IMG/VR virus record: IMGVR_UViG_3300044634_004095 | Length of the DNA: 20,000 nt | Origin: an uncultured virus (IMG/VR IMGVR_UViG_3300044634_004095) | Lineage: Duplodnaviria > Heunggongvirae > Uroviricota > Caudoviricetes | Strand: one strand, 5' to 3' | Shown: one piece after another, positions 7,896-9,536 of the stretch | Layout of the letters: every line of letters starts with the position of its first letter | Numbering within the stretch: the stretch's first letter is position 1 | The notes under the pieces: model-generated | The model's database searches: none | What the model was told of the DNA's origin: nothing | The model's input: only the letters and a program-made list of their open reading frames with translations | Program-made: the position numbers and the translations under genes

Positions 7896-7955
7896 TAATA
7901 TTTATTATTATTTATAAATCAAATTTGCGTTCACTTTTAGCAATGGAGATTTATT

Positions 7956-8318
7956 GTGATCAGACGGAACAAACCACTTAAAAATAAAACCGGCCTAAAA
8001 CGTCAACAGACCCCAATTGCAAAACGTTCAAAAAAAACTGAAGAAAAATATCTTGAACGTCGCCCTTTTGTTGAGAGAATTCTTAAGGAAAGGCCACTTT
8101 GTGAAGCCTGCAAAGTTTTTGCAAAACATGATGATAAATCTATATACAATCATCATATGAGCAAAGACGTACACGAAATTATTCGTCGGTCGCAGGGGGG
8201 CTCAATCTTGGATGACGATAATGTTCTTGCTGTGTGCAGGCCATGTCACGTCAGAATAGGCAATTATCCTCAGCTTGCGTTTGACCTTGGATTGGCAAAG
8301 CATGGGTGGGAAAAATAA
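7956..8318 (+). CDS. HNH endonuclease
   Basis: CEAC...DVHEIIRRSQGG...DNVLAVCRPCH, a zinc-binding HNH pattern. GTG start with GGAG upstream. Confidence 0.88.
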   Translation: MIRRNKPLKNKTGLKRQQTPIAKRSKKTEEKYLERRPFVERILKERPLCEACKVFAKHDDKSIYNHHMSKDVHEIIRRSQGGSILDDDNVLAVCRPCHVRIGNYPQLAFDLGLAKHGWEK

Positions 8319-8343
8319 TTAGCAGAACTATTACTCTTTTCTG

Positions 8344-8349
8344 TAAAAT
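8344..8349 (+). promoter_or_regulatory. Putative -10 element (TAAAAT) upstream of the structured intergenic locus
   Basis: ctgTAAAATg in AT-rich context, similar to gtgTAAAATt (13980) and ctgTACAATt (15828), which precede other gene blocks. Confidence 0.45.
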
Positions 8350-8421
8350 GTTTTAACCTAAAATCTTCTTAGGTACCTAATTCAGCGATAACTTTCGAGA
8401 ATAGAAAGGTCAGGTGGTCCA

Positions 8422-8475
8422 ATGTCTAGTGGTCTTATCCACGGCAAGGAAGCTGGAGTCGCGTCGAACTCATAG
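8422..8475 (+). CDS. Candidate 17-aa peptide MSSGLIHGKEAGVASNS
   Basis: ATG at 8422 directly after an exceptionally long SD-like tract; TAG at 8473-8475; followed by a terminator-like hairpin. Confidence 0.4.
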   Translation: MSSGLIHGKEAGVASNS

Positions 8476-8494
8476 TCACAGTCGACTAACGCCC

Positions 8495-8537
8495 ACAACC
8501 GCTGGCTCGCTCTGCAGGCCCCAGCGGTTGTTTGCTG
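8495..8537 (+). terminator. Terminator-like hairpin
   Basis: Perfect 11-bp stem ACAACCGCTGG (8495-8505) / CCAGCGGTTGT (8521-8531), followed by a weak T-rich tail. Confidence 0.65.
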
Positions 8538-8602
8538 TCTAGGAATAAAAATTGTTCTAACATATAGTTCTGGGCGCAACCAAAACCTTAGGATCGTTAC
8601 AG

Positions 8603-8642
8603 ATGCAGAAGCCGGGAGATTAATTTCTTCCGGCTTCTGCAT
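8603..8642. terminator. Long hairpin (terminator or RNA stem) upstream of ruvC
   Basis: ATGCAGAAGCCGGGAGA (8603-8619) pairs with TCTTCCGGCTTCTGCAT (8626-8642): 17 bp with one G-U. No poly-T tail. Confidence 0.6.
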
Positions 8643-8659
8643 ATAGTAGGATCGATTTT

Positions 8660-9220
8660 ATGAACGTAATGGGGCTAGACCTTTCCTTGACATCGACAGG
8701 ATGTTCCATAAACTCAAGAACATGTGTGGTTGGCACTAAAACAAAAAGTGCCGAAAGACTGTCCGTTATTTCTAAGTTAATATTAAATTTGGCACTAGAT
8801 AATTCAGTCGATGTTGCAATAATAGAGGGATACTCATTTGCCTCTCGCAACAGTCAAGCTCACAGTATCGGGGAACTCGGCGGAGCAGTAAGGATGAGGC
8901 TATGGGAAAACGGTATTCCCTTTATAAATGTCCCCCCAACATGCAGAGCTAAGTTTGCTACAGGAAAAGGAAATGCCGGAAAGAACGAAGTTATTTCAGC
9001 TATTTCTGCAAGGACAGGAATAGTCTGGTCAGGAGCGGGGGCAGACGACATGTGCGACGCCTGGATACTTGAGCAAATGGCTAAACAATTTCTCAATGAA
9101 TCCTCTTTTAGTTGGCCAAAAGTAAATATTGAATCTTTAGAAAAAATTGATTGGTCTCCGCTGGTAGGATTACCTAAAATAAAAAAGAAAAAAGGTTTTG
9201 ATGCGCAACTCCCCGATTAG
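8660..9220 (+). CDS. ruvC: RuvC-like Holliday junction resolvase
   Basis: VMGLDLSLTSTG, IIEGYSF, KFATGKGNAGKNEV and DDMCDA give the RuvC acidic catalytic pattern. Confidence 0.88.
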   Translation: MNVMGLDLSLTSTGCSINSRTCVVGTKTKSAERLSVISKLILNLALDNSVDVAIIEGYSFASRNSQAHSIGELGGAVRMRLWENGIPFINVPPTCRAKFATGKGNAGKNEVISAISARTGIVWSGAGADDMCDAWILEQMAKQFLNESSFSWPKVNIESLEKIDWSPLVGLPKIKKKKGFDAQLPD

Positions 9221-9536
9221 CCAAGTCGATATTGAAAATGAAATTTTACGTCTTTTGGATAGGCTTGAAAAAGAAACAGAGTCTTTTGAGTCACTTTCTG
9301 TTGACTCATCAAAAAAAGAAGCACACTACAAATCTAATTGGGCAAAAGAATATCTTGGGGCAAATGGAGCTATAAAGCAAAGAGAAGCATGGGCGGATTA
9401 TAAGTTGGAACAAGATTATTATGAATATAAAATTGCCGAGGCTTTAGTTAAATCAAAAAGAGAAGTGCTTCTAAGCTTACGGTCATCAATTGACGCAATG
9501 AGAACACTAAATGCGAATGTAAGGGTCCAAGTATGA
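9201..9536 (+). CDS. Hypothetical coiled-coil protein (possibly a UvsY-like recombination mediator)
   Basis: ATG 9201 with AAGG upstream; heptad-rich helical sequence next to ruvC. The UvsY resemblance is only an impression. Confidence 0.7.
   Translation: MRNSPISQVDIENEILRLLDRLEKETESFESLSVDSSKKEAHYKSNWAKEYLGANGAIKQREAWADYKLEQDYYEYKIAEALVKSKREVLLSLRSSIDAMRTLNANVRVQV

Follow-up and report, generated by a model that had tools for sequence, protein, structure and literature searches.

An uncultured freshwater virus of the Caudoviricetes (IMG/VR record IMGVR_UViG_3300044634_004095) carries, within the 20,000-nucleotide stretch of its DNA analysed here (the window), a 341-nt spacer between the genes for an HNH endonuclease and a RuvC-like resolvase. 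In this spacer a tract complementary to the 3′ tail of actinobacterial 16S ribosomal RNA (rRNA) runs directly into an ATG and a 17-codon open reading frame (ORF). Does the tract belong to an RNA that captures ribosomes, or is it the unusually strong ribosome-binding site of a micropeptide gene? Both had been proposed from the letters of the window. We conclude, with a probability of roughly 0.55, that the spacer encodes a stand-alone structured phage small RNA of a family not in Rfam, which we call A, that its conserved purpose is to pair with the 16S 3′ tail, and that it works beside a second small RNA, B, in a cassette that addresses both ribosomal subunits.

Predicted pairing with the 16S rRNA tail

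8371–8538, plus strand: small RNA A, ~168 nt, its putative ends placed from a conserved -10 box and a terminator hairpin
8403–8421, plus strand: tract complementary to the 16S tail, AGAAAGG-TC-AGGTGGTCCA, giving 7 + 10 bp with a 2-nt bulge and one G-U pair
8422–8475, plus strand: 17-codon ORF MSSGLIHGKEAGVASNS plus stop, lineage-restricted

The tract, the ATG at 8422–8424 and the 17-codon ORF were all re-read as the original prediction had described them. As target we used the 17-nt 16S 3′ tail quoted there, CCUCCUUUCU. This sequence is exactly terminal in every 16S gene examined (8/8 genes, one Micromonospora record and 5/5 WhiB-rich actinobacterial chromosomes). When 24-nt segments from both strands of the 104,099-nt genome were ranked by duplex energy, the tract came first of 208,152 at -24.7 kcal/mol, with the runner-up at -21.0. 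Against a 12-nt tail the tract reached -15.0 kcal/mol and the strongest Shine–Dalgarno (SD) sequence at the start sites of 113 heuristically called ORFs -12.2. The tract had been called longer than any other SD noticed in the window; by duplex energy it leads across the genome as well as against the 113 start sites.

Viral contigs were searched with the RuvC protein, giving 80 loci, and two pattern scans yielded 14 distinct versions from the window clade; alignment A3 holds 13 sequences. The letters of the tract differ over at least ten clades, complementarity to the 16S tail being kept always and the changes being compatible with wobble pairing. The window clade and L066 have AGAAAGG-(1–2 nt)-AGGUGGUCC, the L074 group (U)AGGGAGGGGGUGGUCC, the L287/L311 group GGGAGGGGGUGAUCC, and the L012 group GAGAGGGAGGUGGUC, AGAGAGG-C-AGGUGGUC or GGGAGG-C-AGGUGGUC; further forms include GGGAGGGGGUGGUCC, GGAAGAAAGG-C-(A/G)GGUGGUC(C) and GGAAGAAGGG-C-AGGUGGUC, among others. 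GGUG(G/A)UC is the sole invariant part in all variants seen. From one clade to another, the bases A and G exchange opposite U, as in GGUGAUCC versus GGUGGUCC, and bulges range from 0 to 3 nt.

The 19 aligned RNAs, drawn from four clades, all use the tract for a duplex with the true tail (-21.5 to -28.4 kcal/mol), a strength matched by 0–3 of 500 composition-preserving shuffled tails. After the cost of opening A's own fold, the net gain is -5.4 to -18.1 kcal/mol. The L074 clade forms 17 contiguous pairs, several of them G-U, and the L012 clade 13. What relatives share, in these 19 RNAs and in the further clades, is the pairing and not the letters, and the comparison supports the view that what evolution has kept is the match to the 16S tail.

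A perfect 15-nt complement of the tail (GAAAGGAGGUGAUCC-like) is present in at least 116 viral loci (L486–L601). Ordinary long SD sites of phage genes are of the same sequence type; they differ in that only 14 of the 116 listed loci precede an ORF of at least 50 codons, with no start codon nearby at 60 and short ORFs at 40, so that 100 of the 116 are something other than the start of an ordinary gene. In 57 of the 105 distinct listed loci the 15-mer has UCU no more than 10 nt after it, as against 11/105 in a control interval, and the AUG-UCU-AG of the present locus fits this pattern.

Two side observations concern the same loci. A terminator-like hairpin follows the 15-mer in 14 of the 105 distinct listed loci (L499, L512 and L548 are examples), and Lys/Gly-rich peptides of 13–18 residues are found at the 15-mer loci L501, L515, L517 and L574.

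Predicted architecture of small RNA A

8326–8350, plus strand: conserved upstream element ACTATTACTCTTTTCTGTAAAAT, near-invariant in alignment A3, containing TAAAAT and the anti-SD-like CTC(C/T)TTTCT
8359–8364, plus strand: putative -10 box of A, TAAAAT
8392–8408, plus strand: hairpin P1, CUUUC 8392–8396 with GAAAG 8404–8408, sequestering the 5′ half of the tract
8429–8442, plus strand: hairpin P2, GUGG 8429–8432 with CCAC 8439–8442
8495–8538, plus strand: terminator-like hairpin of A, an 11-bp stem (8495–8505 with 8521–8531) followed by a U-rich tail (TTGCTGT)

Actinobacterial promoters usually consist of TAnnnT and lack a -35 box. The upstream hexamer pointed out earlier, TAAAAT, does exist at 8345–8350, but there TAnnnT is kept in just 5 of 14 clade members. 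The conserved box is a second hexamer, at 8359–8364, where all 14 window-clade sequences keep TAnnnT with varying letters (TAAAAT, TAGAAT, TAAACT, TACAAT, TAATAT, TAGTAT) and other clades have TGnTAnnnT at the equivalent position. Past a variable spacer of 6–10 nt, conservation restarts in alignment A3 at AGGTACC (~8371). At the other end, the 11-bp terminator-like stem that had been noticed is present and the hairpin recurs across clades; it differs in every clade and is each time followed by a UUUGCU-like tail. With its own conserved -10 pattern and terminator hairpin, no ORF conserved on either strand of the spacer (13 sequences) and no cassette in many relatives, the locus has the character of the stand-alone unit that had been suggested. 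A minus-strand ORF at 8382–8642 (86 aa) was set aside, since it breaks into pieces of 40–67 residues in different frames in 12 of 13 sequences.

Elements resembling 8326–8350 are present in the L074, L311 and L321 clades; a promoter-upstream site and the 5′ part of a longer transcript are candidate roles. This element, ACTATTACTC(C/T)TTTCTGTAA, holds the anti-SD-like CUCCUUUCU, which could pair with CAGAAAGG if transcribed. Six-base palindromes lie at or near the putative 5′ ends of A (GGTACC at 8372–8377 in the window, and GCGCGC and GAGCTC/GCTAGC elsewhere; L012, L239 and L066 are among the clades), and these may serve as an operator or a dimerisation site.

P2 shows changes on both sides in 4/4 pairs, with 100% of cells paired over 19 sequences and a covariation score reached by 0/500 shuffles. 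P1 is found in the minimum-energy fold of 19/19 RNAs and its stem letters vary by clade (CUUUC/GAAAG, CCUUUC/GAGAGG, CCUUC/GGAGG, UUUCU/AGAAA), although register slips weaken its column count to 87% of cells paired. Taken jointly, the two hairpins have 93% of cells paired, compared with 50–62% when partners are slid, and beat all 500 shuffles and all slid controls. The covariation that had been sought in the stems is thus clear for P2 and less so for P1.

The folds also suggest another reading of the tract. Every one of them pairs it with an anti-SD-like strand in P1, and A could be a regulatory small RNA whose purine tract serves P1, or a pyrimidine-rich messenger RNA (mRNA) or small-RNA target, the fit to 16S being a by-product. 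G/A-rich runs do pair with the C/U-rich tail through wobble, and the upstream CUC(C/U)UUUCU at 8334–8342 is a possible alternative partner. We nevertheless consider this reading quite unlikely. Shuffled tails of the same composition pair equally well in only 0–3 of 500 cases, and the invariant GGUG(G/A)UC(C) lies mostly outside P1 and matches GGAUCACC, a part of the tail that is not pyrimidine. The one exchange seen at the variable position replaces G by A, and either base pairs with U. The sole internal partner tried, the B seed (GGUGGUCC with GGACCGUU), pairs no better than shuffled B in 15 RNAs (fraction at least as good 0.23–0.99), and B itself is independently antisense to rRNA.

The short open reading frame

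The original prediction had offered a highly translated micropeptide as its alternative. A would then be a small mRNA, the tract its very strong ribosome-binding site, and the effector a peptide of 14–17 residues (MSSG-hydrophobic-...), as proposed for RreB/RreR. Several features of the window clade fit. In its 14 sequences the ATG is invariant, 1 nt past the last paired base of the tract, and the frame is open for 14–17 codons. The U that pairs with the 16S base beside the CCUCC core sits 7 nt before the ATG, which we take to be normal spacing, and the variable codons 5–6 remain hydrophobic. A second clade (L425/L475/L476) has ATG-TCT-AGT right after the tract and a 15-codon ORF with the same MSSG start, its P2 loop being longer by exactly 3 nt. 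The rreB and rreR ORFs have 14 and 18 codons (Hahn et al. 2016, RNA Biol, PMC5711450).

The wider comparison points the other way. Among 39 distinct variants, 14 have a start codon no more than 8 nt from the tract, and all 14 belong to these two clades. The other 25 come from at least eight clades and carry neither ATG nor GTG nor TTG so close to it. Since only 14 of the 39 variants have a start codon, the micropeptide is not the conserved feature. Sister clades carry indels within the would-be ORF (1 nt between L240 and L239, a 2-nt insertion in L243), and the C-terminus and stop vary, the stop falling at codon 15 in most and at codon 18 in the window and L010. Codons 1–4 and 7–11 show no synonymous change within the window clade although the flanking proteins are 57–75% identical, which places the constraint on the nucleotides of the RNA. 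Clades that have no start codon, L357 for one, retain these nucleotides too (UCUAGUGG...CCACGGCA). We therefore regard a small mRNA as an unlikely description of A, and suggest that the short ORF is at best a lineage-specific extra, possibly with weak translation in the two ATG-bearing clades.

Small RNA B and helix 69 of 23S rRNA

8558–8563, plus strand: putative -10 box of B, TAACAT, with TG.T.TAnnnT conserved in alignment A3
8571–8646, plus strand: small RNA B, 30 nt downstream of A, with a single-stranded 5′ part, the seed CCUUAGGAUCGUUACAG at 8586–8602 and a 40-nt hairpin at 8603–8642

The reading of A as a partner of the 16S tail gains from its neighbour. In most clades the B seed, CCUUAGGACCGUUAUAG, is fully complementary (17/17) to a stretch of 23S rRNA in the region of helix 69, an inter-subunit bridge. 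This 17-mer target occurs once per rRNA operon in three genomes, lies within the large-subunit rRNA model at ~position 1918 with matching context, and in one actinobacterial 23S gene falls at position 2080. The seed of the window reaches -22.8 kcal/mol, first of ~208,000 genome segments (next -17.3), and is unpaired in the predicted fold. Seed variants with GGAUCG and GGGCCG are wobble-compatible with the target.

Trans-acting small RNAs of bacteria and phages have a free 5′ seed and a Rho-independent terminator, and the known examples target mRNAs. B has the build of a base-pairing small RNA, with a promoter box directly upstream, an unpaired 5′ seed and a hairpin; the partners found here are rRNAs only. 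Other clades have TAnnnT 6–7 nt before the seed, a long hairpin after it and, in most, a U run, which the hairpin of the window clade does not have.

The exact B seed occurs in at least 119 viral loci. Of those listed, 114 are built as a small RNA, 67 of them having an A-type tract at most 430 nt downstream and 47 lacking one. The 47 loci that have no A (within L367–L485) show several unrelated hairpins and some extend the complementarity, to 28 nt with one mismatch in L428. A crude rule called 5 of the at least 119 seed loci "23S-like", and L463 alone has true 23S flanks. In 133 distinct RuvC-anchored regions, A and B occur together in 47, A alone in 14, B alone in 0 and neither in 72. B follows A in the window clade, precedes it in most others and is missing in the L012 group. 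In L196 (1507–2619, minus strand) ~780 nt are inserted between A and B, so the two modules are separable.

Several weaker leads belong here. A duplexfold screen of entire rRNAs with 22-nt fragments of the two small RNAs proved over-permissive, since long loops are allowed, and was informative solely for B versus 23S. A 14-nt sense match of 8449–8462 to 16S (E 1.7) is at chance level. A second rRNA match of A, CGGCAAGGAA (8442–8451) with UUCCUUGUCG just after helix 69, has 10 bp only, is about what chance gives and is missing from other clades. Searching the helix 69 segment of actinobacterial 23S against deposited phage records retrieved only real 23S genes, and because a 17-nt match is below the E limit this result is uninformative on cultured actinophages. 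As a side observation, L009 (2886–3000), a relative that has no A, holds a diverged B-like motif, GGGGATGGTATAGG, and a long hairpin between HNH and RuvC, under the energy cut-off used for counting B.

A seed that equals a stretch of the 23S gene, which we take to be the core of the I-CeuI homing site, also invites a reading at the level of DNA, in which the locus serves as an operator or origin, or as a site of attachment or homing taken over from rRNA genes. The cassette does lie between two nuclease genes, and palindromic hexamers (GGTACC, GCGCGC, GAGCTC) stand at the putative 5′ ends. The variants are not identical to ribosomal DNA and preserve RNA pairing by way of G-U wobbles and bulges, which are meaningless for DNA identity. 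The G-U pairs of P2, of the terminator of A and of the B hairpin form on the plus strand only. The orientation is fixed, the antisense seed standing 5′ of the hairpin in 114/114 B-type loci, and TAnnnT boxes lie 6–7 nt upstream. We give a DNA element very little credence and return to A and B as RNAs.

A cassette upstream of RuvC

8647–8662, plus strand: putative promoter of a leaderless RuvC gene, TAGGAT, then 7 nt, then ATG at 8660
8660–9220, plus strand: RuvC-like resolvase gene (Pfam RuvC, E 7.8e-05; PHROG 159, E 2.8e-34)

In many relatives the HNH gene abuts RuvC with no spacer between them, so the spacer is an inserted cassette, carried by about half of the related phages; HNH is the conserved upstream neighbour with or without the RNA element. 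Where it is present, the spacer DNA is 77–84% identical in relatives whose RuvC protein is 57–75% identical. The distribution of pairing strength is bimodal: 62 of 131 distinct RuvC-upstream regions hold a site at or below -21 kcal/mol, and the other 69 are at or above -18.6. A matches no known family. Rfam release 15 gave 0 matches at gathering score over the whole window, and 8250–8720 gave only junk at E 0.12–8.8; ARAGORN called no transfer RNA (tRNA) or transfer-messenger RNA gene, either in the window or, at a relaxed setting, in the region. The interval 7900–9300 had no near or distant match among 50,697 deposited phage records. L195 and L203 were discarded as chance matches within coding sequence; all 101 loci from a genome-collection scan with a 17-mer of A were discarded as chance matches by nhmmer.

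In every case A immediately precedes RuvC, and 13–120 nt separate its terminator from the gene start. It could thus be a cis-acting leader or attenuator, transcription from the A promoter reading into ruvC on terminator bypass as set by ribosome binding at the tract. The RuvC gene has its own TAnnnT box, 6–7 nt 5′ of the initial ATG or GTG, throughout the 13 sequences of alignment A3 and in every representative examined from other clades (L010 and L234 carry TACCCT at the box position), so no upstream transcript is needed, and read-through would leave a start codon with no SD internal to the message. No conserved alternative antiterminator pairing was found, and the ~780-nt insertion in L196 separates A from B. 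We judge an attenuator highly improbable, in favour of a free-standing A. Among related loci no SD is conserved at the RuvC start, and the gene looks leaderless, in line with the leaderless phage genes of the original prediction.

Candidate hosts

The actinobacterial host that had been assumed is probable: the phage encodes a WhiB-family protein (G000:C1:51185-51403, outside the window, 52 bits), and among 14 control genomes this family was found only in Corynebacterium. In a sample of the class Actinomycetia, which holds Micromonospora, 113 of 201 genomes show the helix 69 segment, in exact form in four. A sample of the whole phylum shows it in 125 of 251: 86 have the exact form (including the unpublished G311), 18 a second form (including the unpublished G274), 20 the form of the class and 1 a further form (G391, also unpublished, on which no claim rests). 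Five of five exact-form chromosomes carry 6–10 WhiB genes, and within a single rRNA operon the exact 16S tail lies 2.4 kb upstream of the exact helix 69 target, so plausible hosts exist. Hosts with both exact targets probably lie outside the class Actinomycetia. L097, from a record titled Candidatus Planktophila, led to a genome (G001–G026) whose family has 16S 3′ ends of alpha-proteobacterial appearance; label and placement seem at odds, and the genome was not used for host inference.

Proposed ribosome capture and its precedents

We suggest that the phage probably acts directly on host ribosomes through A and B. Ribosome capture by A is the best-supported candidate mechanism and, judged from sequence comparison, a well-motivated one. 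A would be transcribed from its own TAnnnT promoter and end at its own terminator. The exposed part of the tract (bulge and GGUCC) would seed on the 16S tail and P1 would melt, and the resulting duplex of 15–17 bp would keep A on the 30S subunit, as has been shown experimentally for Bradyrhizobium rreB. Productive initiation would be poor or impossible, because the duplex reaches the position of the start codon and P2 begins 8 nt later; the bound subunit would therefore be occupied and its anti-SD masked. Such masking would spare SD-independent mRNAs, for example that of the adjacent leaderless RuvC. Since B is antisense to helix 69 of 23S, the cassette would address both subunits.

The closest parallel is rreB. 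This Bradyrhizobium small mRNA is 165 nt long, has a 14-codon ORF and is perfectly complementary to the 16S 3′ end over 17 nt. It co-sediments with 30S, is translated weakly owing to its extended SD and needs its start codon for stability; its function is called elusive, analogues are given for four alpha-proteobacterial orders, and the family is defined by perfect complementarity of at least 16 nt to the 16S 3′ end (PMC5711450). A resembles rreB and rreR in being a stand-alone transcript of ~165 nt with its own promoter and terminator (predicted from sequence for A), in a region of 16–17 nt complementary to the whole free 16S 3′ end, and in holding this region partly in a hairpin that leaves few seed bases free. 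In both rre RNAs a short ORF of 14 or 18 codons starts at the end of the complementary region, as it does for A in the window clade and one other. The differences are equally plain. A is found in phage genomes with a probable actinobacterial host and the rre RNAs in alpha-proteobacterial chromosomes; the 17 paired positions of A are split 7 + 10 in the window by a 2-nt bulge and include one G-U; most A clades have no start codon; and A is accompanied by an RNA antisense to 23S. On present evidence A would work like an rre RNA. It may be a member of that family, with three reservations: the complementarity is interrupted, most clades have no ORF and the setting is a phage.

A number of observations weigh against ribosome capture by this cassette. 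Ribosomes far outnumber any small RNA. The phage's own genes are not free of SD sequences: 32 of the 113 ORFs have one at or below -6 kcal/mol, compared with 12% of background segments. The complementarity of the window's tract is broken by the bulge and the G-U pair, the predicted folds pair most of the tract within P1 and its extension, and the seed of the window has one G-U and one C-A mismatch to 23S, the latter matched by a host variant in 0/401 actinobacterial genomes. Of the 113 Actinomycetia genomes that show the segment, nearly all have a form of helix 69 that is two mismatches away from B. The aligned sequences are related, so that the 19 RNAs amount to a handful of independent events only. 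A BLAST search limited to Watson–Crick pairing, genome against an actinobacterial rRNA operon, flagged neither A nor B and gave 11 matches, all at chance level. A generic scan for sigma-70 promoters and terminators detected neither the promoter nor the terminator of A, so both are drawn from comparative evidence only. Finally, over-production of rreB left growth unchanged, and according to its authors the simple recruitment of ribosomes is not what it mainly does (PMC5711450).

Both rRNA sites have been aimed at by design. According to a review, translation and growth were blocked by a peptide nucleic acid directed at helix 69 in Escherichia coli 23S rRNA (Kulik et al., cited in PMC12828698), and a second antisense oligomer was aimed at the 16S mRNA-binding site in 2009 (cited in PMC12828698). 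On that account both sites are known to be vulnerable to antisense. The likeness lies in the same two rRNA sites and in short antisense pairing; the oligomers are man-made, have uncharged backbones and are delivered from outside, and the phage RNAs are natural, structured, predicted transcripts. More broadly, and tentatively, many uncultured phages may carry one or two tiny RNAs against the functional rRNA sites that are most exposed, the 16S anti-SD tail and 23S helix 69, natural "antisense antibiotics" that reprogram or disable host ribosomes, and the present cassette would be one of a much larger set; we hold this wider proposal to be possible, though doubtful. Such RNAs might cover the anti-SD and so give leaderless phage messages the advantage; alternatively they might keep the subunits from joining or new ribosomes from maturing.

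The listings from our literature search showed no phage RNA described as antisense to rRNA. To our knowledge, the phage means of taking over ribosomes described until now are proteins. If A and B truly pair with rRNA, they would constitute an RNA-only phage route to translation takeover and would supply a function for the unexplained rre-type "extended-SD" RNAs, and the two rRNA sites picked by the designers of antisense antibacterials would first have been found by viruses. Under our model, variation in the seeds should follow variation in host rRNA, a correspondence that could help to assign hosts to uncultured phages.

Genome setting

7956–8318, plus strand: HNH endonuclease gene (PHROG HNH endonuclease, E 3.6e-11), outside the RNA module
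Minus strand of the window: prohead protease and portal genes
Plus-strand gene order: terminase large subunit, Rad52, PD-(D/E)XK nuclease, HNH endonuclease, the 341-nt spacer, RuvC-like resolvase, ParB and a PAPS-reductase-like gene

The window forms part of a virus record of 104,099 nt with 44% G+C. A Pfam search of the HNH gene product at 0.001 gave no match. The phage contig also carries three tRNA genes, Met-CAT, Ile-TAT and Arg-TCT.

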